A stretch of 64,000 nucleotides of DNA from Chloroflexota bacterium (GTDB lineage: Bacteria; Chloroflexota; UBA11872; VXOZ01), in assembly GCA_963662335.2 (NCBI GenBank), contig CAXXVD010000002.1, positions 448,001-512,000 on the forward strand. The letters run 5' to 3'. A program made the position numbers and the translations under genes. Positions 2,832-64,000 of this stretch are shown here, one piece after another. The notes beneath the pieces are model-generated. The model searched no databases. It was given only the letters and a program-made list of their open reading frames with translations, and was not told where the DNA came from. The stretch's first letter is position 1, and the number at the start of each line of letters is the position of its first letter.

Positions 2832-3925
2832 GAGACCTTTGCGTAATCCTGGTTTTGGGCGAGACAGAGGCGTGCCGGGCTGGGAAGCGGGATTTTTCAG
2901 CTTCCGCCGGGGGGTGTTCTTCGCCCGTGCGTGAGTATTGAGCGGGCTCTTTGCCCCCGCGCAGGGGTCAGATTGGTGCTGTGGAGGTGCGGGAACCGGG
3001 TTCCCGCCGTCTCTGCTCTGCCTTTCTCGGTTAGGCCGCGCGTGCCAGCAACGTCTCCGCCGTCCGCAGGTTGTACGCTATCAGTTTGAACCACACCTCC
3101 ACGCCGTTGCGGCCCAGGCCGCGGTAGCGCACCCGCCGGTAGCCGTAACTCCGCTTCAGCGTGCCGAACACCCGCTTCACCACCGCCCGCACCGGCGCTA
3201 TCCGCGCGTTGCGCTCCTGCTGCCACTGCGGCAATTCCCGCTGGTGCTTGTGCGACCGGTGCATGATGCAATCGTCTATCCCCTGTGACCGCAGCCACTC
3301 TCGCCGCCGCTTGGACTCGTACGCCTTGTCTGCGTACACCGCCTCCTCGTCACCACAGACCAAGTGGTCCGCCACCTCACTCTCAGATACTTTGGCCGGC
3401 GTCAGTTCCGCCCGCCGCACCAACCCCGACCCTAAATCCATCCCCACGTGCGCCTTGTACCCATAGTGCGCTTGCCGCTTGGCCCCGCTGCGCGTCCAAT
3501 CCGCGTCCGGGTCTTTCTCCCCTTTCTGCCCTAACTCCGCTTTCACCGACGGCCGCCGCACCTGCGCTTCCACCAGCGTCGCGTCCAGCAACGTCCCGTT
3601 CTTCACCACCAACCCTCGCTCCTCAAACTGCGCTCCCAACTCCGCAAACAACGCCTCGCTCAATCCATGCTCCGCTATCTGCGCCCGAAACCGGCTCAGC
3701 GTCGAGTGATCCGGCGTCTTGTCTGCCAATCCCAACCCCACGAACCGCCGGAACGAGAGCCGATCCCGCAACATCTCCTCCATCACCGGATCCGATAGGT
3801 TGTACCACTGCTGCAACAACAACACCTTCACCATCACCAACGGCGGATAGCTTGGCCGACCCCGCTCAGACGCATAGATGCCCGACACCAACTCCCCCAT
3901 CCGCTCCCAATCCACCGCCGCCAGG
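2832..3925 (-). mobile_element. IS5-family element (IS1106-like end), 5'-truncated
   Basis: Terminal GAGACCTTTGCGTAATCC at 2832. No matching second IR was found; the transposase lacks its N-terminus. Confidence 0.8.
3031..3915 (-). pseudogene. IS5 family transposase, N-terminally truncated
   Basis: GRPSYPP, LQQWYNLSDP, PDHSTLSRFR, LDATLV, YGYKAHV, YADKAY. The catalytic Glu position reads RAVVKRVF instead of R.VE..F. Confidence 0.8.
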
Positions 3926-6049: not shown

Positions 6050-6195
6050 AGGCGGGGGACAAGCCCCCGCGCTACGACATTTGCGCAGTGGCGGGGATTG
6101 AGACCCCGTGATACGGCATATGCGCAGTGGCGGGGGCTGAGACCCCGTGATACGGCATATGCGCAGAGGCGGGGAACGAGCCCCCGCGCTACGAT
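6050..6195. repeat. Tandem array of four ~39-bp REP-derived units
   Basis: GGCGGGG...CCCCGYG.TACGRCATWTGCGCAG units with varying hairpin loops. Confidence 0.85.
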
Positions 6196-6229
6196 CCGTC
6201 AGTGAATTGTGGAAGAGAGTTGCGGTCGT

Positions 6230-8680
6230 ATGCGGAATATCCTGAGCGGGCTGCTGGGCAGCCGGAGTGAGGAGGAAGCGCGGACCGCCACGCGTGCGCG
6301 GCAACGGGACGCCGGCGACTTTGGCGCGTTGCTGGGCGACCTGGGCGGCGGCGTTCTGCTCTACGAGGATGCGTTCGTCCTGGGCAGCGACGCCTACCGC
6401 CGCCGCCAGCCGCCGCTCGCGCTTGCATTGGAACGCGGCGACGAAACTGCCTACCGCGAGATTCAGAGCCAGTTCGACGGCTGGGACGGCGCGCGGAGTT
6501 TTGCGGGCGCTGTGCCGCGGGCGCGCGAGGTCTTCCGCCATTGCACGCCGCGCATGACCGCCACGCTGCGGCAGATGGCGCACGTGCTGGGCGGCGCGAG
6601 CGCGGCCAACCCTTCCCTGCTGCTCACCGGGCCCACCGGCTGCGGCAAGACCACACTGGCCAAGACCTTCTGCCACCTGGCAAACGAGCCGTGCGTGGAG
6701 ATCACGTTCAGCGGCGATACGGCGCTCAGCGACTTCTACCAATCGGTGGAGGTGGTCACCCAGGCCGGCAGCCAGGCGCACAGCACGGCCACGGTGCTCG
6801 GTCCGGCGGTGGACGCCATGCTCACCGGCAAGAAACTGCTGCTCAACGAGGTGAATATCATTCCCCAGGACCTGCTGAGCGTCTTCACCCAGGCGCTGGA
6901 CGCGCGCCAGGTGGTCCTCTCCGGCAGCGAGTGGGGGAACGTGACCGTGCCGGTGCACCCGCAGTTCGGCGTGATCGCCACCGCCAACCCCAACTACACC
7001 GGCACGCTGGAGATCGGCGTTACCTGGGAACGGCGCTTTGGCCGCGGCACGGGCAACGTGGCGCTGGACTTCCTGCCGCCGGAAGAAGAGGCCGAGGCGG
7101 TCTATCACGAGTTGCGGCGCGTGGCGGCGCTGGCGCAGGTGGGCGCGCCGCCGCCCATGGAGGCCTGCACGGCCGCGGCTGCGGTGGCGGCGGAACTGCG
7201 CAGCCACCCGGAACTCGGCGGCATCATGCGCGACCGGATTTCCACGCGCTCGTTAGTGCACTGGCTCAGCGTGTGCGGCCTCACCGGCTTTGCCATGGCC
7301 GCGGTGGCGCGGGACGCGATCTTGACGCTCGCGCCGCCTGAGGCGCGAGAGGAAGCGGCCGCGCTTGTGGGGAAACTGCTGCGCACCGTGGGCTGGCCCG
7401 CGCGGACGCAGCGCCGGGTGAGCGGCGTGCTGCTGCCGGAGATTACCGTGCCGGAGGAGAGCGTGGTCGCGCTGAGCAGTCTCGCGCCCGCGCCGACGCC
7501 CTTTGCTCAGGACGAAGAGAGCGCCCAGCGCGCCGGCGGGTTGGAGCAAGAGGTCTACCAGCCGCTCGACGGCGCCGCATCGGGCGGCCAACCGGCGCTG
7601 GCGCGCTACCAGTGCGTTCTCCCCGACGGCACGCGCTTGCGCCTGGAAGAGCCGCTCTACACCTGGGCCGGAAACCCCATGGCCCTGGGGCTGCGCCTGC
7701 GGGCGTGGGATCCAAACGGGTTCGAGATTGCGGACCCGGCGCGGCTGGAGGCGTTGGAGGCCGTCCTCGGCGCGGAATACGGCCTCACGGTGCCTAGGCC
7801 AATTGGCAACGTGCCGGCCGCCGGCGTGGCCCTGCCCTGCCTGACACGCTCCGGCTGGACGGCGCTGCGCCTGCTGGAGGCGGCGCTGGCGCTCGACCGG
7901 CCGGTGTACGTCAAAGGCCCGCCGGGCAGCGGCAAGTCGGCGCTGGTGCGCACGCTGGCCCGGCTGCGGCAGACGCCGCTGGTGGAACTCTCGTTTACGG
8001 GCGAGACCTCCAAGCACGACCTGCTGGTCAGCCGCCGCCTGCGCACGGGCGAGACCCAATGGACGGTGCAGGCCTTTCTGGAAGCGGTGCTCAAGGGCTA
8101 CCTGGTGCTGGTGAACGACTATAACCTGGCCTATTCGGACGTGCACTCCCTGCTGAATAGCCTCTTCGACAAGGGCCGGCGCATTACGCTGCCGGACGGC
8201 CGGACGGTGACGGCGCACCCGGGCTTCCGGCTGGTTGCCACCGGCCAGCCGGAAGGCCCGGGCGTGAAGCCGCTCAACGAGGGCGTGGAAAACCGCTTCG
8301 GCGCGATTCTGGAACTCGCGTATCCGTCGTCCGGCGAAGAACTGGCCATCCTGCGCAGCGTGGGGCGCGGCCTGCCCGCGCCAACCCTGCGCGCGGTGGT
8401 GGACTTCGTCGGCCAATGCCGGCGCTGGGCGGCCGGCGCGGCGCCGGAGGACCTGGCGCAGGAAACGCTCTGGCAGGACGCGGTCTCGCCGGAGTTGATC
8501 GCCGCCGTGGCGGCGGCCGGCAACTGGAGCACGGCGGAATTGGTGGCGCTGGCGCGAGAGGCGGAAGACGGCGCGGCGGTGGTGGAACGGTTCCAGGAGG
8601 GCGTGCTCTCAGCCGCCAGCCCCGCCGCCCGCCGCATCCTGGAGGCGCTGCTGCTGCAATATAACGTGACGGTAGAGTGA
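6230..8680 (+). CDS. Tandem (double) AAA+ ATPase, MoxR/CbbQ/midasin-like (AAA_5)
   Basis: Two P-loops, GPTGCGKT and GPPGSGKS. Walker B LLLNE and LVLVND. HPQFGVIATANP / HPGFRLVATGQP; ERRF / ENRF. Confidence 0.88.
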   Translation: MRNILSGLLGSRSEEEARTATRARQRDAGDFGALLGDLGGGVLLYEDAFVLGSDAYRRRQPPLALALERGDETAYREIQSQFDGWDGARSFAGAVPRAREVFRHCTPRMTATLRQMAHVLGGASAANPSLLLTGPTGCGKTTLAKTFCHLANEPCVEITFSGDTALSDFYQSVEVVTQAGSQAHSTATVLGPAVDAMLTGKKLLLNEVNIIPQDLLSVFTQALDARQVVLSGSEWGNVTVPVHPQFGVIATANPNYTGTLEIGVTWERRFGRGTGNVALDFLPPEEEAEAVYHELRRVAALAQVGAPPPMEACTAAAAVAAELRSHPELGGIMRDRISTRSLVHWLSVCGLTGFAMAAVARDAILTLAPPEAREEAAALVGKLLRTVGWPARTQRRVSGVLLPEITVPEESVVALSSLAPAPTPFAQDEESAQRAGGLEQEVYQPLDGAASGGQPALARYQCVLPDGTRLRLEEPLYTWAGNPMALGLRLRAWDPNGFEIADPARLEALEAVLGAEYGLTVPRPIGNVPAAGVALPCLTRSGWTALRLLEAALALDRPVYVKGPPGSGKSALVRTLARLRQTPLVELSFTGETSKHDLLVSRRLRTGETQWTVQAFLEAVLKGYLVLVNDYNLAYSDVHSLLNSLFDKGRRITLPDGRTVTAHPGFRLVATGQPEGPGVKPLNEGVENRFGAILELAYPSSGEELAILRSVGRGLPAPTLRAVVDFVGQCRRWAAGAAPEDLAQETLWQDAVSPELIAAVAAAGNWSTAELVALAREAEDGAAVVERFQEGVLSAASPAARRILEALLLQYNVTVE

Positions 8681-8739
8681 GCGCGGCGGTCGATCCGTAG
8701 CGCGGGGGCTTGTCCCCCGCCTCCTGCGACGCGCCGCTA

Positions 8740-8783
8740 CCGTCGGAGTAGGGGCACGACATGTCGTGCCCCTACTCCGACGG
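8740..8783. repeat. Perfect 44-bp palindrome containing a GTAG-type REP
   Basis: CCGTCGGAGTAGGGGCACGACA|TGTCGTGCCCCTACTCCGACGG. Confidence 0.9.
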
Positions 8784-9032
8784 AAAGAGAAGATGAATTC
8801 CCGCGAAGGGGAATTCACCATGATCGGACAACAGCCACATTAGAGAATGAAGATGAACCGTTCTTTGTCCGTCATTCCCGCGAAAGCGGTAATCCATCTT
8901 CGCCGCGCCCGCAGTGGATTACCGCTTTCGCGGGAATGACGGATACCATCGCGCTACATTCATCGTATTTGCGAAATCGTAGCGCGGGGGCTTGTCCCCC
9001 GCAGCAGCGGGAGCGCGGCACGAGAGCAAGGC

Positions 9033-11030
9033 ATGGCCACAACGGCAACAACAAACGCGGCAACGCGGGCCGAGGCCCGCGTGCGCGAAACGCGCTACAC
9101 CCACGGCGAGGTCGTGGCGCTGGCGCGGCTGATTCTGCGCGACGCGCGCCTGAACGTCGTTGCGGGCAGCGAGTGGGCCTACAGCGCCCGCGGCCACACC
9201 CTCGCGTACCCGTCGCGGGTGCTGGACACCTGGCCCGGCACCAGCGTCGTCGGCGCGATCTGCCAGCAGATGGCGGAAGCGCGGCACACCGGCGTCATGG
9301 GTGAGCGGGCACTCCAGAGCTTTGCCCGCATCGCGCCACTGGACTTCGGCGCCGTCATGCCGTTCGCGCGTTTCGTCAACGAACTGCGCGTCAACCGCAT
9401 GCACCTGGAGCGGCACCCCGGCTCGGCGCGTTTCCTGCGGGCGCTCTACGCCGACAATCCCCAGTGGGCGTCGGCCCGGCGGCGCAGCACGCCCTTGCGG
9501 GAACAGGTGGAGCAGGGCTTGCTGGCGCGCTGGCTCCAAGAGGTGTGGCCGGAGCGCGCGCGCCCGCCGCGGGTTGGCGGCGCAGCGCACCGCTACGTGG
9601 AGGCGCTGTGGCCCGGCGTGCGCGACGCGCTGCTGCGGGACTCCATGCCGCAGATGTTGGACGTGCTCGCGCGGCGGATGCTGCCGATTCTGGACGAACT
9701 GGTGGCGGAAGACGACCGGCGCGCCCGCCAGCGGCCCGAGACCGAACGGCCTACGCCCGAAGAAGACGCGAGCGCCGAGGACGAAGCCGAGGCCCTGGGT
9801 GAGTTGCGCATCGAAACGGTCGTGGCTGAGGCCGGTTCAGCCGCCGCCCGGCCAGAATCCGGCGAGCGGCAAGATTCCGCCGATTCCAGGTCCGATTCCG
9901 AGCCGGAGCCAGGCTCAGCGGCTGAAGACGGCGGCCCGGCCAAGGTGGAGAGCAGCCCCCACGAGCAGGCCGAATTGCGCGACGACGCCGAGCCGGGCGC
10001 GCAGCCGCAATCCCGTCCCCAAGGCCCGCCGCGCCTGATCGACCCGCGCATGTTCAAGGCGCGTCCCGGCCAACTCACGCCCATGCCGCGCACCATCGTG
10101 CAGGGGCTGGGCGAGCGGCCGGCCGCGCCCAAGACCGACTACGAGAACTTCGACTACCGCGCGGCCGTGCGGCGGCTGGAACCGGCCATCCGGCGCTCGC
10201 TGGACGGCGAGGCCGGACGGAAGGGCCTCAAGGAGATCATGATGCGCCGCCGCTTTGGCACCCTGGAACCGGGGCGGCGTCCCCGCCGGCGGCGCGGCGG
10301 CGACAGCGGCGAGATCGACACCGACCACGTGGAGCGCCTGGTCGTCGCGCCGGAACAAGCCTTCCTCAAGGGCGTGCGCGCGCCGCGGGCGGACCACCAG
10401 AAGGACTTTGCCGCTATCATCCTCATAGACGTCAGCGGCAGCATGGTGGCCAAGGGCTACTCGACGCGCAAGTTCGACCACACCGTGAACGCCGCGATCA
10501 TCTTCAGCGAGATCCACGAGCGGCTGCGCATTCCCTACCAGATGATGGCGTTCTCCGAGGAGGTCTGGCGGCTGCGGACGTTCGAAGAATGCGCGTTCGC
10601 GACGCAGGTGGTGGCGAACGAGCGCACCTACACGCCCAAAGACCTGAGCGGCGTCTTTCGCGCCATGTACGAGCAGCCGCACAAGAAGACGGACGACGCC
10701 GGCGCCGTGCGCCAGGCGGTGGCGGACGTGCAGCAGCAGAAGGGATTCAAGACTATACTGGTCTTAACGGACGGCATCTCCTCCAACCGGCGGAAGTTGC
10801 AGGAGGTGCTGCTGCGCGTGGAGCGGCGCAACGGGATGGTCGGCGCCGGCGACGCGCTGGGCATCATCGTCTTCGGCATCGGCGTGCCGGGCGACGCGCT
10901 GAGCGAATCCTACGTGGCGCAGGCCGACGGCAAATTCCTGCGCTGCCTGCAAACGGTGGTGGTGCCCGACGTGTCCCGGCTGCCGCGCATGATACAGACG
11001 ACGATCGAGCGCCGCATCCGCGGCGTATAG
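9033..11030 (+). CDS. VWA-domain protein (CobT/NorD-like architecture) with acidic linker
   Basis: MIDAS IDVSGSM ... T ... LTDG; E/D/P-rich linker; N-terminal helical domain. Confidence 0.88.
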   Translation: MATTATTNAATRAEARVRETRYTHGEVVALARLILRDARLNVVAGSEWAYSARGHTLAYPSRVLDTWPGTSVVGAICQQMAEARHTGVMGERALQSFARIAPLDFGAVMPFARFVNELRVNRMHLERHPGSARFLRALYADNPQWASARRRSTPLREQVEQGLLARWLQEVWPERARPPRVGGAAHRYVEALWPGVRDALLRDSMPQMLDVLARRMLPILDELVAEDDRRARQRPETERPTPEEDASAEDEAEALGELRIETVVAEAGSAAARPESGERQDSADSRSDSEPEPGSAAEDGGPAKVESSPHEQAELRDDAEPGAQPQSRPQGPPRLIDPRMFKARPGQLTPMPRTIVQGLGERPAAPKTDYENFDYRAAVRRLEPAIRRSLDGEAGRKGLKEIMMRRRFGTLEPGRRPRRRRGGDSGEIDTDHVERLVVAPEQAFLKGVRAPRADHQKDFAAIILIDVSGSMVAKGYSTRKFDHTVNAAIIFSEIHERLRIPYQMMAFSEEVWRLRTFEECAFATQVVANERTYTPKDLSGVFRAMYEQPHKKTDDAGAVRQAVADVQQQKGFKTILVLTDGISSNRRKLQEVLLRVERRNGMVGAGDALGIIVFGIGVPGDALSESYVAQADGKFLRCLQTVVVPDVSRLPRMIQTTIERRIRGV

Positions 11031-11045
11031 AGCGAGAAGGAGCGT

Positions 11046-11819
11046 GTGGTGAGGCCCGGTATTCAACACTACGCAAACGACAACCTGCCGTGGGGCATCC
11101 GTGCGGCGCTCCTGGTGTGGCTGCTGTGGCTTGTGCTGGCGCACCTCTGCCGGGCGCTGCTCGACTTCTACACGGCATTCGCGCCGCTGCGCTTTCTGGC
11201 CGACGCGAGCCCCCAGACGCTGCGCGGCACCAGTTTCTCCCCCGGCGTCTTGGTTGCCGCCGTGTTGCTGCTGCCCGCGCTGCTCGCCGCCGGTATTGCC
11301 TTTCGCCTGGTTGCCGCCCGCTACCCGGGCGCGCCCTTGCAGGCGCTGGCGTTCACGCGGCTCAATCCGGTGTGGGTGCTGGCGGCCGTGGTGCTGCTGG
11401 GGGTGCTGCTGACGTTTCTGCTGCGGCTCGCCCTGGGGTGGTCGGGCTACCCCCTGCCGCTGCTGGAAGCGCCCGCCGGCTACTTCTCCCTGCTCGATGC
11501 GCTCGCCTACGGCGTGAGCGTGCCGCTGACGGCGCTGCTGGCGGGGGTGCTGGTCTTTGGGTTCTGCTATCCGGTGCTGGTGGCGCGCTTGGGCCTCTGG
11601 GCCGGCGGCTTGGCGTGCGCCGTCTGCTTCGCGCTGCCGCAGCTTGCCGCGCAAGGCGTCTACTGGCAACCGGCGGCGGCCCTGCTGGTCATGGGCGTCT
11701 ACCTGACGGCGGTGCGGGCGCGCACGGAATCGGCCTACACCGCGACGCTCGGCTATACCGGCGTTGCTATCTACCTGGCGCTGTCGGCAGTGGTGGCGGA
11801 GCTAGCCGCGGCCGCTTAG
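11046..11819 (+). CDS. Multi-pass membrane protein, CPBP/Abi-like with degenerate motifs
   Basis: About 7-8 hydrophobic segments. The C-terminal ..YLTAVRARTES.. pattern is CPBP-like, but EExxxR, FxxxH and HxxxN are absent. Confidence 0.6.
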   Translation: MVRPGIQHYANDNLPWGIRAALLVWLLWLVLAHLCRALLDFYTAFAPLRFLADASPQTLRGTSFSPGVLVAAVLLLPALLAAGIAFRLVAARYPGAPLQALAFTRLNPVWVLAAVVLLGVLLTFLLRLALGWSGYPLPLLEAPAGYFSLLDALAYGVSVPLTALLAGVLVFGFCYPVLVARLGLWAGGLACAVCFALPQLAAQGVYWQPAAALLVMGVYLTAVRARTESAYTATLGYTGVAIYLALSAVVAELAAAA

Positions 11820-12235
11820 CCGTCCCGCAAGAGACTGCGGCCCGTGGCGGCGGCGACGATTGCGTACAGCGGATCGATGACCGACCACATGACCAGATAG
11901 GGCATCTGCTGCACGTCGGCTTCCAAGGTCAGGAAGTCGAACCAATTCCAAAAGAACCACAAGGCCAGCAGAATGGCGGCCCACTTGGCGGCGTTGGCCG
12001 CCAGTGACGCGGCGGCCCCGGCCTCAGAATCCGCGGCCTGCTCCGCCGCCAACCCGCGGCGCACGTTCACCACCACGGCAACCACGATGCCCAACGCCAT
12101 GAACCAATCCAAGACGCTCCACACCGCGATGGGGTCGAGCGCGTCGCGGTAGAACGGGCTGAATACGAAGTGCACCGCCACAACGAGGGCGCTGCCGAGC
12201 AAGTATATGCCTAAGGGTTTCCGTGCGGCGTCCAT
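11816..12235 (-). CDS. Hypothetical 4-TM membrane protein
   Basis: Hydrophobic ORF with RBS AAAGGA before MDAARKP. Confidence 0.7.
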   Translation of the reverse strand: MDAARKPLGIYLLGSALVVAVHFVFSPFYRDALDPIAVWSVLDWFMALGIVVAVVVNVRRGLAAEQAADSEAGAAASLAANAAKWAAILLALWFFWNWFDFLTLEADVQQMPYLVMWSVIDPLYAIVAAATGRSLLRDG

Positions 12236-12311
12236 GCGCGTATCCTTTCTCCGGCTGCAACCTGAACTCCTAACGAATGACATTCATCCCGTAGCGCGGG
12301 GGCTTGTCCCC

Positions 12312-12472
12312 AATGCTGTCGCATTAAACTCAAATGGCGATGTGAACCACGCCTCGCATCTCCGGTAGCGCAGGTTTGTAACCTGCGAATCTTGCAGGTC
12401 AATCCTTAGCGTACCAGTTTCAATGGCTCCGGCGGGGGACAAGCCCCCGCGCTACGTTAATGCGACAACATT
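12312..12472. mobile_element. MITE-like element with 16-bp TIRs carrying two REPs (related copies ~17778-17921, 20463-20605, 30427-30569)
   Basis: AATGCTGTCGCATTAA ... TTAATGCGACAACATT; the internal layout is conserved across four copies. Confidence 0.7.
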
Positions 12473-26204: not shown

Positions 26205-27101
26205 CTATGCGCCGGAGAGCGACTGCTCCGCTTCGGCTTTCGCTTCAGATTCCTGCAGGCCATCGAGAAAGACCGCGTCTTTCATGACCAAATCGCGTGC
26301 AAAAGGCTTAAGTCCGCTCTCCGTGACTACGTCTACCTTACGCTGAAAGTAATCCTGCAGGAAGTGCTGAAGTCCAAAGAGGTTGTCAGCCGTCATGTGA
26401 CCGTTCGGAATGTCAACGAGAATGTCAATGTCGCTGCCGGCGCGCGCGGCGTTGCGGGCAACCGAACCAAAGACCCCAATGCGGCGTACGCCAAACGACC
26501 GCAGTCTTGAACGAACGCCGTAAAGCGCCGCCAGCACGATTTCTCGTGCGGGCGCTATCTCGCCCTCAGTGAGCGCACGTAAGCGCTCAGCGTCTAACTC
26601 GCGTTCTACCCCCGGTCTTGGCCGCCAAACTGTAGCGCGGGGGCTTGCCCCCCGCTCCTCTGCCTGCCTAACCGTAGCGCGGGGGCTTGTCCCCCGCTCT
26701 GCGGCGCCCCCGGTTGAATCCATCGCTGGCTCGGCGCTAAGTACGCTCTCCAGCAGCGCGAGAAGACTCGGCGCAAGTTCCGTCGCAGCTTTCCATACTA
26801 GCTCATCGTCCGTAGGCGCGAGCGACGGCGTCAGATGATTGCGCAAGTCGTCAATCTGTCGCCACGGGAATTCCGTGTGCTGCGTCTTGCAGTCGTCCGA
26901 TACACGTTGAGCCGCCTGACCGACGATCTCCATAATCCGTTCCGTGGCGGCGCGCAGCGTAGAGTTCTCCGCCGCCGTGTATTCCGCTACACTGACGCCG
27001 GAAACCAGGGCTATCGCCATCCTGGAAGCATCCGCCATGTGGAGCAACCGCACTCGATCCACTTCGGTCATCATGCGGACATCCTTCGACCCAACTGTCA
27101 T
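26205..27101 (-). CDS. Fusion of HepT/DUF86-like HEPN domain and MntA-like minimal nucleotidyltransferase
   Basis: N-term DRVRLLHM..ATERIMEIVGQAA..FPWRQIDDLRN; C-term GVFGSVARN..SDIDILVD..KVDVVT; REP-encoded linker. Confidence 0.8.
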   Translation of the reverse strand: MTVGSKDVRMMTEVDRVRLLHMADASRMAIALVSGVSVAEYTAAENSTLRAATERIMEIVGQAAQRVSDDCKTQHTEFPWRQIDDLRNHLTPSLAPTDDELVWKAATELAPSLLALLESVLSAEPAMDSTGGAAERGTSPRATVRQAEERGASPRATVWRPRPGVERELDAERLRALTEGEIAPAREIVLAALYGVRSRLRSFGVRRIGVFGSVARNAARAGSDIDILVDIPNGHMTADNLFGLQHFLQDYFQRKVDVVTESGLKPFARDLVMKDAVFLDGLQESEAKAEAEQSLSGA

Positions 27102-52059: not shown

Positions 52060-52875
52060 GGGTCTGTTTATACTAAGCGCAAAGCATCGACGATGATGGC
52101 AAAGACAATGAAGGCGGCGTAGATGCTGTCGAGTTTGTCGTAGCGGGTATAGATCTTGCGGAACCGTTTGAGCCTGCCGATGAAGCGTTCCACCTCGTTG
52201 CGTCTCTTGTATACCTCCTTGTTGTAGGCCCACGGCTCTCTGCGGTTCCGTTTCGGCGGCACGACCGGTTCATACCCCAGACGCCGTGCCAGCGCTCTGG
52301 TGGTCTCCCCTTCATAGGCGCGGTCCATCGCCAGATAGGGTGTGCCTGCCTGTGTGCCCACCGCGCGCAGCAACTTCTCCCCTTCCGGGGCGTCGTGCGC
52401 CTGCCCAGGCGAGAGGCAGAACTGTACCGGACTACGCTCGTCGACAACCAGCACGTGGCTCTTGGTGGTCACTCCCCCGCGCGAGCGGCCAATGGCCTGG
52501 GGTCCGTCTTTTCCGCGCCCCAGTGCCCTGTGGGTGCACCGTGACCGTGGTGCTGTCCAGGGCGGCCACGACCACCTCGGTGCGGAGCACTCCCTGCTCA
52601 CGCAAGGCCGCCAGCACACGATCCAACACCCCAGTCCGCGCCCAGCGGCTCAGCCGTGCGTAGATGGTGCTCCACTTGCCGTAGTGGGGCGGCAAGGCAC
52701 GCCACTTGCAGCCGTTCTCCGCCATGTAGAGCACGGCATTGAGCGCCTGCACGTTGGATACCCTGACGTTCCCGCGCGGCACCGGAAACAGATGTGCGAT
52801 ATGCTCGTACTGCGCTTGTGTGATTCCACAATGCCACTAGAATACCACAGTAATCTGCTTAGTTTAGACATGCCC
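52060..52875 (-). mobile_element. IS5-family element (IS427-like, two-ORF transposase), probably inactive
   Basis: IRs GGGTCTGTTTATACTAAGC / GCTTAGTTTAGACATGCCC, inserted in CTAG with TA duplicated. OrfA ENGCKWRALP..GKWSTIY; OrfB GRSRGG.TTK, DRAY, YKRRNEVER, TRYDKL. Confidence 0.88.
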
Positions 52876-59043: not shown

Positions 59044-59313
59044 GGCCGCGCCTTTCCATCGATTCCGCCCCCTGAAGCGCCCACGCGGCGCTAGCTCCGG
59101 CCAAGCTTCCTTGCGGCACCCGAAAGTAACCGCTTACCGCTGCTTCCTTCCGGACCTGACGGGGTTCACGGCCTCTCGCCGCGCAAGACCCAGCCATCAA
59201 CGCCGCAGACCACGCGGCAGCCTCCAGGACGCGCAAACCTCACGGAAAGCTGTCAACCCCGCTATAGCGGATTGCGGGTAACAGGGCACCGCTAACTCCC
59301 CGCCTAGCACGGC
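59044..59313 (-). ncRNA. ffs: Signal recognition particle RNA, large (Alu-containing) type
   Basis: Minus strand begins GCCGTGCTAGGCGGGGAGTTAGCGGTGCCCTGT (Bacillus scRNA-like). It contains the helix-8 motif GTCAGGTCCGGAAGGAAGCAGC, its ends pair, it is ~270 nt, and it lies upstream of dnaX. Confidence 0.93.
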
Positions 59314-59323
59314 CTCGGGTTTA

Positions 59324-59353
59324 ATGCTACGCAAACTCAAGCCACAGCGTCAA
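59324..59353 (-). promoter_or_regulatory. Putative ffs promoter
   Basis: Minus-strand TTGACG-N18-TAGCAT just upstream of the RNA 5' end. Confidence 0.5.
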
Positions 59354-59359
59354 GCGCTG

Positions 59360-59791
59360 CCGGTTGAAGTTGGTGGGATCAAGCAATGGAGAAAATCGAC
59401 GAGACGCGATGGCGGTGGAATTACAAGTCGTAGGCTTTACTTTTCTATTGCCACTCTGGTCTCCCCACGTCTGACTGCGTCGTACATCAGTGCTTTCCAG
59501 AATCACAACATTGATCCGCGCGCAATCCTCATGATGGACTATTCCACCGGCTTCAACGGAGTTCTTGACCAAGTGCTGCACCTGCGCGTCAACCATAGCG
59601 AGCGCTATGCAGATAGCGCGATTCGCGCCAGCACCATTGAGAGATTATGGTCATTGGTGAAGCGTGCGATTGCCGGCCGCCACTACACGGTAGAGCACAC
59701 TGCGTCCTACATTGATGAGGTGGCGTACAAGTACAGTATTGGGAAGTCTGAAACGCCCTGGGACGACTTCATGCAGAGGGGTGTGGCTTAG
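59360..59791 (+). pseudogene. IS1595-family transposase C-terminal remnant
   Basis: IDP.AILM.D, HLRVNHSERY, STIERLWSLVKRAI.G.H, YIDE..Y.Y pattern; N-terminus missing. Confidence 0.75.
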
Positions 59792-63740: not shown

Positions 63741-64000
63741 AGGCGGGGGACAAGCCTCCGCGCTACAAGGTGTGAGGCCCCATGCTTCGGACCAAGAGCG
63801 GGGGACAAGCCCCCGCGCTCCAGGGCGTGAGGCCTCATGCTTCAGACCAAGAGCGGGGGACAAGCCCCCGCGCTACAGGGCGTGAGGCCCCATGCTTCGG
63901 ACCAAGAGCGGGGGACAAGCCCCCGCGCTACAGGGTGTGGGGCCTCGTGCTAGGGAGCAAGAGCGGGGGACAAGCCCCCGCGCTACAAGGTTTGAGGCCC
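63741..64000. repeat. 55-bp tandem array of REP-containing units (5 copies, runs off window)
   Basis: REP GCGGGGGACAAGCCYCCGCGCT at 63743, 63798, 63853, 63908 and 63963, with near-identical linkers. Confidence 0.9.

Follow-up and report, generated by a model that had tools for sequence, protein, structure and literature searches.

A Tandem AAA+ ATPase with Walker B Asparagines and Its CobT-like VWA Adaptor in Chloroflexota

What kind of machine pairs an ATPase whose two AAA+ modules both lack the Walker B aspartate with a separate protein that ends in a VWA domain? This question is raised by a locus in a 64,000-nucleotide stretch of DNA (hereafter "the window") from a Chloroflexota bacterium (assembly GCA_963662335.2, contig CAXXVD010000002.1, positions 448,001 to 512,000). 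Three open reading frames (ORFs), called genes 1, 2, and 3 here, lie on one strand at 6209/6230-8680, 9033-11030, and 11046-11819. A preliminary description of this DNA had proposed that they encode a split, membrane-linked system laid out like midasin or VWA8. Our analysis, which is based on sequence comparisons and predicted structures, indicates that genes 1 and 2 constitute a lineage-restricted variant of the systems exemplified by CobS-CobT (CobST), NorQ-NorD (NorQD), and CbbQ-CbbO (CbbQO), in which a tandem ATPase with Walker B asparagines is joined by a CobT-like adaptor carrying a pseudo-zincin domain. Gene 1 begins at the ATG at 6230; the identical 816-residue database protein and all close homologues open with MRNILSG. 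Residue numbers for gene 1 follow the 823-residue ORF that begins with the GTG at 6209.

The gene 1 protein matches the Pfam family AAA_5 in two stretches (E = 3.5e-36; 124.7 bits against a cut-off of 22). As the preliminary description had stated, the Walker A motifs are intact (GPTGCGKTT and GPPGSGKSA), the Walker B aspartate is replaced in both modules (KLLLNEVN and LVLVNDYN), and the sensor-1 position of module 2, which translates as VATGQPE, is missing its asparagine. In HMMER alignments, Asn213 and Asn636 align exactly with the Walker B aspartates of midasin modules. The two modules are paralogous, with 29% identity over 143 residues (E = 2e-16).

A word-indexed search with gene 1 returned 75 matches, of which 74 belong to one family of proteins of about 530 to 840 residues that, where named, are Chloroflexi or Chloroflexota "MoxR-like" or "AAA family" ATPases. 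The 75th match is a partial fungal midasin (E = 1.6e-13). A genome scan yielded 64 distinct loci from the best 80 of 108 confirmed matches (131 pattern matches), and all of these loci are titled Chloroflexota or Chloroflexi, one of them Dehalococcoidales; one short fragment on a 2-kilobase (kb) contig is labelled Actinobacteria. Motifs were then tabulated for 65 ATPases (64 loci and the window), and 33 family members were aligned.

The unusual motifs proved to be uniform. Module 1 reads GPTGCGKTT at Walker A and hhhh-N-E-(I/V/L)-N at Walker B in 65/65 proteins, and the canonical hhhhDE occurs in none. Its sensor-1 motif, (A/G)TANP, and its sensor-2 motif, STR, are likewise present in all 65, and RRF is found in 64, with RRL in the other. 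At Walker B of module 2, every protein has asparagine at the aspartate position, followed by glutamate in 46 (hhhhNE) and by aspartate in 19 (hhhhND), the latter being the clade of 16 to which the window belongs plus L018, L022, and L051. Module 2 also retains an intact Walker A motif and, in all 65, ENRF. It has AT(G/A) with no asparagine at the sensor-1 position throughout and (S/T)TAE at the sensor-2 position in all 63 proteins that extend to it. Because no orthologue carries DE, the asparagines, together with the sensor losses of module 2, are on this comparative evidence fixed traits of the family and not decay or a local lesion. The preliminary description had named canonical DE in orthologues as the sign of decay, and that objection consequently falls away.

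The notion that this locus is a remnant in decay, its ATPase and peptidase sites dead, does draw on the absence of several canonical motifs and on the long stem of the window clade (1.45 changes per site, 16 rows, SH-like approximate likelihood ratio test value 100) in a tree of 64 ATPases from which the 642-residue protein of L047 was excluded. We give it almost no credence, as the data contradict it. The substitutions have become fixed in the family, every complete locus has intact reading frames, and each folded domain has a ratio of nonsynonymous to synonymous substitution rates (dN/dS) of 0.05-0.10, the same as the housekeeping controls. These ratios were computed pairwise within the window clade by the method of Nei and Gojobori (NG86) for sequences with at least 60% identity and at least 90% coverage, after removal of saturated pairs and of those whose dS fell below 0.05, and the values are approximate because dS is about 1. 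They are 0.090 for the ATPase (0.080 for module 1, 0.128 for the middle region, and 0.053 for module 2) and 0.093 for the adaptor (0.095 for the N-domain, 0.188 for the linker, 0.039 for the segment preceding the VWA fold, and 0.055 for the VWA domain), compared to 0.084 for both the ribonucleotide reductase (RNR) and a TIM-barrel neighbour. A HAD neighbour was dropped as a control owing to saturation (NaN). Thus, both genes are under strong purifying selection at a level like that of their housekeeping neighbours.

The retained residues suggest different roles for the two modules. Module 1 has kept its catalytic glutamate, sensor 1, arginine fingers, and sensor 2, and a site that lacks only the Walker B aspartate among its catalytic residues is likely to be the working one. 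Module 2 has kept Walker A and the arginine finger only, which makes it a likely nucleotide-binding, regulatory site. Turnover is probably slow or switch-like, since asparagine replaces the Walker B aspartate in both modules. One study reports that this aspartate is strictly conserved and that replacing it abolishes activity (PMC9599734). Given that report, the preservation of the other catalytic residues in module 1 is the most puzzling feature of the system and also the most testable. Segments corresponding to the helix-2 (H2) inserts are conserved in both modules (residues 168-200 and 598-620), and R609, G614, T616, and W618 in the insert of module 2 are invariant in the 33-member alignment.

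To which known ATPases is this protein closest? The family profile ranks midasin first among solved structures (2.7e-67), but this total is high because it is summed over the six midasin modules. When the modules were searched separately, a check that the preliminary description had recommended, module 2 scored 61 bits against NorQ, 50 against the best single midasin module, 47 against CbbQ, and 32 against CobS (6.7e-07), and module 1 scored 41 against CbbQ, 31 against the best single midasin module, and 26 against NorQ. Per module, then, the nearest solved relatives by sequence are NorQ, CbbQ, and CobS, not midasin. A Foldseek search with the AlphaFold model of gene 1 gave NorQ hexamer chains first, with template modelling (TM) scores of 0.74-0.79 (target-normalised) and CbbQ among the top matches, followed by dynein motors aligned over about 800 columns with a high root-mean-square deviation.

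The protein can be placed in the AAA_5/MoxR class (clade 7) by its AAA_5 score, its NorQ/CbbQ fold, and its helix-2 insert, although the canonical Walker B motif of that class is absent. It falls short of the narrower families. Matches to NCBIfam are all below threshold, including GvpN (64.9 bits against 266.8) and the CobS equivalog TIGR01650 (29 bits against 558.55; E = 5.6e-07 for module 2), and its 816 residues and two modules differ from the single module of about 330 residues in CobS. Module 2 does match the CobS-like PHROG "porphyrin biosynthesis" at 2.3e-44. Unlike midasin/Rea1, it has two modules and a VWA domain in a separate gene, and no midasin lid or linker domain is present in the precomputed Pfam list of the database protein identical to gene 1. 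When shorter proteins related to module 2 but having a single module were sought with a word-indexed search, no separate sister family came to light: most of the 25 matches are pieces of the tandem family cut off at contig ends, and two are read-through chimeras that join the end of the ATPase to the start of the adaptor. Full-text literature searches, whose scope did not extend to subscription journals and supplements, yielded no description of the tandem family and nothing for "bacterial midasin" or "prokaryotic midasin"; among the matches listed, uses of "midasin-like" and "midasin homolog" are eukaryotic.

The gene 2 protein has the intact MIDAS (DVSGS, T553 in HKKTD, and TDG) and the acidic linker that the preliminary description had recognised. 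The MIDAS residues are invariant in 57/57 sequences that extend to them. The linker, which has 28 acidic (D+E) compared to 15 basic (K+R) residues, is disordered in the AlphaFold model and net acidic in 22 of 25 aligned adaptors. That model has a mean predicted local distance difference test (pLDDT) value of 72.2 and comprises a helical N-domain, a disordered stretch from 237 to 353 (pLDDT below 50), three helices with a low-confidence basic loop, and the VWA fold. At the C-terminus of the adaptors, three to five residues from the end, R-I is invariant and a further R nearly so. Foldseek matched the C-terminal domain to the MIDAS domain of MDN1 (best), the NorD VWA domain, and integrin I-domains, with E values down to 1.5e-07. 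Pfam VWA_2 scores 23.2 bits on the gene 2 protein, below its cut-off of 27, and matches 25/25 aligned adaptors at E ≤ 1 (best E = 5.3e-08). NCBIfam gave no match.

More distant relatives disclosed the ancestry of this adaptor. A gene 2 profile searched against 1.84 billion representative sequences gave 527 matches at E ≤ 0.001, including only about nine close full-length representatives, after which scores fall to about 110 bits. Two groups make up the distant relatives: proteins of about 600 residues with Pfam CobT_C or VWA domains, and giants of 1,100-5,200 residues in which the same N-domain and VWA domain follow AAA_5 modules (or, in two cases, precede them). The N-domain alone, with the linker excluded, aligns along most of its extent with proteins of this wider family, scoring 35-75 bits, and hhalign aligns the Chloroflexota adaptors with the wider family end to end (probability 100%, E = 6.6e-41, 558 columns). 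The wider-family profile in turn matches solved CobT at 1e-39 (profile positions 94-584 on CobT 100-616), the midasin acidic tail and MIDAS domain at 1e-14, and NorD at 1e-9. On the basis of these profile alignments, gene 2 encodes a distant member of the CobT superfamily. Full-length fold matches are to phage "CobT" and VWFA proteins (E values down to 5e-14), and the language-model neighbours of the N-domain are unnamed phage clusters, one of which has Pfam CobT in 15% of its members.

The wider family also explains an odd site in the N-domain. The preliminary description had pointed to QQMAEARHT as an HExxH-like site, and it aligns exactly with the HExxH of the wider family. Most of the 54 aligned wider-family domains show HExxH, which in this family is followed by N..ED.R(V/I)(N/E); in the alignment whose profile matched CobT, H106, E107, H110, N132, E135, D136, and R138 are invariant or nearly so. 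Among the Chloroflexota proteins, the first site reads Q-Q-M-x-E in 16/16 members of the window clade and H-(E/L/Q)-x-A-E in the other 46, and the second motif reads N-D-(L/M)-R-V-N in the family at large and N-E-L-R-V-N in the window clade. Given that HExxH occupies the same aligned position, QQMAEARHT is, by homology, a genuine but disabled HExxH site, and gene 2 lacks the signature of zincin-like metallopeptidases.

The giant relatives bear on the proposed midasin/VWA8 layout. Those with two AAA_5 modules are P0107, P0143, P0170, P0171, and P0180. Three more carry the same N-domain and VWA domain, namely P0161 (4,471 residues), which has six AAA_5 modules in an alternating pattern, P0162 (4,405 residues), which has one, and P0152 (5,198 residues); these three look like single-chain midasin-like machines. 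Several giants have the Pfam "midasin AAA lid", and the named sources are Deltaproteobacteria, Elusimicrobia, KSB1, and a metagenome-assembled genome from Halobacteriota. Because the N-domain and VWA domain of the adaptor recur in these chains fused to one, two, or six AAA_5 modules, the idea of a split midasin/VWA8 layout gains support. It holds in part: the layout recurs in fused form in prokaryotes, even in a six-AAA chain, but the window's modules are nearer to NorQ, CbbQ, and CobS, and their partner belongs to the CobT superfamily. The first modules of P0170, P0171, and P0180 have the Walker B asparagine as well (hhhhNEIN), whereas the second module of P0180 has DE and the Walker B motifs of two other fused relatives read EE. 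Its presence in these fused relatives argues that the Walker B asparagine is older than the Chloroflexota family.

Membership in the CobT superfamily raises the prospect that the pair is this lineage's class I chelatase motor, equivalent to cobaltochelatase CobST, with a CobN/ChlH-type subunit encoded elsewhere. The CobS matches of module 2 noted above, although weak, are in keeping with this idea, and cobN is often unlinked from cobST. Against it, the CobS equivalog score is far from its cut-off, and NorQ and CbbQ outscore CobS per module. No CobN domain was found among the scanned ORFs of the 64-kb window, and neither were rubisco or nor domains, as the preliminary description had maintained; nor did Rfam report a cobalamin riboswitch in the window. 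The tandem architecture, the Walker B asparagine, and the lost HExxH are further differences, and the adaptor superfamily is widespread in phages, where a role in cobalamin synthesis is doubtful. We consider a chelatase function unlikely.

The two genes are conserved as a unit. A VWA homologue lies directly downstream of the ATPase gene on the same strand in 61/64 loci, and two of the three exceptions (L047 and L064) end at a contig edge. In most loci, 5-10 nucleotides separate the two genes, compared to 352 nucleotides of repeat elements in the window. Together with the purifying selection described above, this synteny upholds the preliminary view of a MoxR-class AAA+/VWA pair that is as yet uncharacterised. 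Across clades, no gene beyond the pair is conserved. The gene that follows it belongs, depending on the clade, to the gene 3 family (window clade) or encodes a 285-residue polytopic protein (15 loci), or is replaced by rpsA-clpC-radA-ispD, a gene for a solute-binding protein on the opposite strand, or mutL; upstream are glycosyltransferase genes with a GH57 gene, or lexA. These contexts track the clades of the ATPase tree, as expected for vertical descent of the pair.

The same evidence speaks to whether the pair might be a vWA-MoxR system that acts against phages or in other conflicts. Such systems have been reported from Chloroflexi (PMC7159879), and the adaptor superfamily is common in phages. 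However, the pair resides among housekeeping genes, its tree follows the neighbourhood clades, and it is accompanied by no effector, VMAP-like third component, or third gene conserved across clades. In addition, PADLOC gave no match for the adaptor or gene 3 and only P-loop-local matches for the ATPase. Thus, a conflict function has very little to recommend it.

Whether gene 3 provides a membrane link was a separate question. If genes 1 to 3 formed a three-gene membrane-anchored machine, gene 3, a pseudo-protease of CPBP-like appearance, would serve the ATPase-VWA pair either as its anchor or as its client. Gene 3 begins 15 nucleotides past gene 2 and shares its strand; in the 14 window-clade loci whose contigs are long enough, it is retained downstream of the VWA gene, and its dN/dS is 0.153. 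A second clade has the different 285-residue protein at the same position, and a study of NorQD includes membrane complexes such as cNOR among the clients of MoxR/VWA systems (PMC13036017). However, the gene 3 family was not detected beyond the narrow window clade (26 database clusters, all with at least 64% identity), and its occurrence is limited to loci with conserved gene order throughout the neighbourhood; because this order includes the flanking genes, its adjacency carries little weight. In several close relatives, the distance from gene 2 to gene 3 widens to 170-510 nucleotides, and the further clades have the other genes listed above in its place. A three-gene machine is therefore improbable, and the "membrane-linked" part of the preliminary description, which draws on this adjacency, is unsupported. 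Gene 3 probably lies outside the core system, as a lineage-specific neighbour that may be co-transcribed.

Gene 3 encodes about six hydrophobic segments and has no match in Pfam (E ≤ 0.01) or NCBIfam. The EExxxR, FxxxH, and HxxxN/D motifs are indeed absent from 15/15 aligned sequences, which have conserved VFGFCYP, FALPQ, and LGYTG at the equivalent places. The likeness to CPBP proteins comes from language-model neighbours (30/30 in Rce1-like/CPBP clusters, score 0.95), a lead and not an alignment, and gene 3 has neither PF02517 nor the motifs by which CPBP/Rce1-like proteins are recognised. The 285-residue protein of the second clade (L025, 12086-12952, and 14 further loci) has five to six hydrophobic segments and no Pfam match. 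It was rejected as a relative of gene 3 (hhalign probability 0.1%).

We therefore return to the two-gene core. Genes 1 and 2 probably encode an AAA+/VWA remodelling module with two components, of the same kind as CobS-CobT, NorQ-NorD, and CbbQ-CbbO and vertically inherited within Chloroflexota. With the aerobic cobaltochelatase motor CobS-CobT it shares a clade-7 AAA+ motor, an adaptor that consists of an N-domain, a long flexible linker, and a C-terminal VWA domain with a MIDAS, homology of the adaptors through the profile chain, and a second N-domain motif that, in the wider family, aligns on a motif of CobT itself. It differs in having two modules in one chain, Walker B asparagines, and a module 2 without sensors 1 and 2, in addition to the distance from CobS and the missing neighbouring CobN already mentioned. 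Taken singly, both AAA modules find their best matches in sequence and fold in NorQ-NorD and CbbQ-CbbO, which have the same adaptor layout with a conserved extreme C-terminus, and a finger-in-pore arrangement would be expected from the NorQD report (PMC13036017). The window pair differs in its tandem ATPase, in an adaptor N-domain that derives from an HExxH domain, and in having no nor or rubisco genes nearby among the scanned ORFs.

Eukaryotic midasin/Rea1 and VWA8 resemble the pair in placing several AAA_5 modules before an acidic linker and MIDAS domain, and the resemblance to midasin extends to the MDN1-MIDAS fold matches and to the lid domain in the prokaryotic fused relatives. In contrast, the window system is split over two genes, and its modules score higher against NorQ (module 2) and CbbQ (module 1) than against midasin. 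VWA8, which we compared by description only, is described as two AAA+ domains plus VWA (PMC10743472), the same layout that is split here, and the fused relatives that we found are prokaryotic. Phage CobT-like VWA proteins and CobS-like ATPases match in full-length fold, in PHROG, and as N-domain neighbours. However, most wider-family proteins keep HExxH, where the Chloroflexota family has HExxE or QQxxE, and the window pair is chromosomal and vertically inherited.

Recent work on the related systems suggests how such a module might operate. According to two preprints, the CobT N-domain of CobST sits on the small AAA subdomain and is followed by a flexible linker, and with ATP the VWA domain rests on the concave face of the ring and inserts a finger into its pore (bioRxiv 10.64898/2026.10.09.757910; bioRxiv 10.64898/2026.07.21.739949). 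The NorQD account has the finger touching the H2 inserts, the NorD C-terminus binding the post-sensor-1 loops, and stepwise ATP binding turning the VWA domain relative to the docked N-domain, which stretches the linker (PMC13036017). The window pair has features that match this model, namely the H2-insert segments, the basic-loop segment (the most constrained part of the adaptor), and the C-terminal R-I/R. By analogy, three tandem chains could assemble into a six-module ring in which modules 1 and 2 alternate, an arrangement encouraged by the six-module single chain P0161 with its alternating module types. The adaptor N-domain, a former zincin-like domain that has lost HExxH, would dock on an AAA lid. 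Ahead of the VWA fold, the basic loop is a candidate pore-inserting finger, which together with the C-terminal RIR may contact the pore H2 inserts and post-sensor-1 loops, and the MIDAS face could grip an acidic residue of a client. Nucleotide-driven ring motion would then twist or stretch the adaptor and so remodel the client, for instance in cofactor insertion or complex maturation. The pseudo-hexamer of weak and dead sites put forward in the preliminary description is a plausible prediction.

Several observations weigh against the two-component remodelling module, or against parts of it. The CobT link emerged only through the wider family, as a two-step profile chain; the adaptor profile alone matched only integrin I-domains among solved structures (E about 0.25), and gene 2 has no match to Pfam CobT or CobT_C. 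The AlphaFold model of gene 1 is of moderate confidence (pLDDT 73.7, predicted TM score 0.67). The gene 1 protein may perhaps not be a motor at all, since the Walker B aspartate is reported as essential in the study cited above (PMC9599734). One complete locus, L051 (7875-11873), has an aldehyde dehydrogenase gene after the ATPase gene and no VWA gene within 8 kb, and its module 2 carries N-D. Finally, the genes beyond the pair are housekeeping genes that vary by clade, and they pointed to no client.

A bolder interpretation goes further than the two-component module, and we advance it only tentatively. The pair could represent a long-lived MoxR-class machine without a Walker B aspartate at any site, in which "competent but Asn" sites would alternate with "binding-only" sites around a ring of three tandem chains. 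Gated by ATP, this ring would act slowly to clamp the CobT-like adaptor with its pseudo-zincin domain. The pair might then be a compact, split prokaryotic counterpart of midasin and VWA8, with the six-AAA bacterial chains on the same evolutionary route. Asparagine at the Walker B aspartate position of both sites in 65/65 proteins, under strong purifying selection, offers a natural test of the role of this aspartate. The tandem and its fused relatives with one, two, or six AAA_5 modules indicate that prokaryotes have concatenated MoxR-class rings that end in a VWA domain, and these could be simpler models for midasin and VWA8. Moreover, CobT-type adaptors become tied to an HExxH domain that appears to have been disabled stepwise, from HExxH to HExxE to QQxxE.

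Table 1. Positions in the window of genes 1 to 3, the spacer between genes 1 and 2, and the domains and motifs of the encoded proteins
Feature	Position	Strand	Description
Gene 1	6230..8680	+	Tandem AAA_5 (MoxR-class) ATPase, 816 aa
AAA module 1	6506..7408	+	Residues 100-400
Module 1 Walker A GPTGCGKTT	6629-6655	+	Translation of coordinates
Module 1 Walker B KLLLNEVN	6833-6856	+	Asn213, Glu214
Module 1 sensor-1 ATANP	6977-6991	+	Translation of coordinates
Module 1 ERRF	7028-7039	+	Translation of coordinates
Module 1 sensor-2 STR	7241-7249	+	Translation of coordinates
Inter-module region	7409..7795	+	Residues 401-529, small beta-rich domain and helix (AlphaFold: strands 463-500, helix 510-524)
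AAA module 2	7796..8677	+	Residues 530-823
Module 2 Walker A GPPGSGKSA	7916-7942	+	Translation of coordinates
Module 2 Walker B LVLVNDYN	8102-8125	+	Asn636, Asp637
Module 2 sensor-1 position VATGQPE	8234-8254	+	Without Asn
Module 2 ENRF	8288-8299	+	Translation of coordinates
Module 2 sensor-2 position STAE	8528-8539	+	Without Arg
Spacer between genes 1 and 2	8681..9032	.	352 nt, dispersed hairpin repeats and two perfect palindromes
Gene 2	9033..11030	+	CobT-superfamily VWA adaptor (by profile comparison), 665 aa
N-domain, helical	9033..9740	+	Residues 1-236, derived from HExxH domain
QQMAEARHT site	9264-9290	+	Residues 78-86, at HExxH position of wider family
Second N-domain motif ARFVNELRVN	9366-9395	+	
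Linker, disordered, acidic, Pro-rich	9741..10133	+	Residues 237-367; 28 D+E, 15 K+R, 18 P
Most conserved segment	10134..10406	+	Residues 368-458, includes basic loop
Basic loop RRRFGTLEPGRRPRRRRG	10218-10328	+	In residues 368-458 segment
VWA domain with MIDAS	10407..11027	+	Fold from residue 459
MIDAS DVSGS	10428-10442	+	
MIDAS Thr553 (HKKTD)	within 10680-10694	+	
MIDAS TDG	10767-10775	+	
C-terminal RIR	within 11007-11027	+	
Gene 3	11046..11819	+	Polytopic membrane protein, 257 aa; CPBP-like by language-model features only; without catalytic motifs

The surroundings of the locus are those of an ordinary chromosome, with genes for class II RNR, PolA, ProRS, DnaX, transaldolase, and RpiB, a signal recognition particle (SRP) RNA, and a few insertion sequence (IS) fragments. 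Rfam found only the SRP RNA in the whole window (bacterial large type, 59046-59312 on the minus strand, 185.9 bits) and no riboswitch near the genes, and a promoter and terminator scan returned 0 promoters and 4 terminators compared to 4.0 expected. An IS-type DDE transposase ORF of 294 residues (DDE_Tnp_1 and DUF772) is located at 3031-3915 on the minus strand, and shorter transposase ORFs resembling fragments (DDE_Tnp_1; IS1595-like) are located at 52068-52616 (minus strand) and 59324-59788 (plus strand). A minus-strand ORF of 155 residues with three hydrophobic segments (11816-12283) converges on gene 3 with a 4-nucleotide overlap. It has no family match in Pfam or NCBIfam and is kept in the window clade only, at 42-59% identity.

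The long spacer between genes 1 and 2 belongs to a wider pattern of repeats. A 24-nucleotide hairpin element, GTAGCGCGGGGGCTTGTCCCCCGC, occurs at 28 sites in the window (at most 3 mismatches) compared to 0 expected, for example at 6052-6075, 8697-8720, 8979-9002, 12432-12455, and 63743-63986, and looks similar to repetitive extragenic palindromic elements. Its copies lie mostly between called ORFs, often in pairs, and are found at both ends of gene 1 and throughout the spacer; the few within ORFs are at 26632, 26674, 28529, and 28579. The first two of these lie in a single minus-strand ORF (26205-27098) with both a HepT-like domain and an MNT-like nucleotidyltransferase domain; crude ORF calling has probably merged the two genes of a HepT/MNT toxin-antitoxin pair, or the repeats have disrupted such a pair. 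Five copies with a 55-nucleotide period occupy 63743-63986, where the intervening "spacers" are nearly identical; this region is a tandem repeat and not a CRISPR (clustered regularly interspaced short palindromic repeats) array. The palindromes in the spacer between genes 1 and 2 are both perfect, with one at 8740-8783 composed of 22+22 nucleotides and no loop, and the other at 8868-8943 composed of 29-nucleotide arms around an 18-nucleotide loop.

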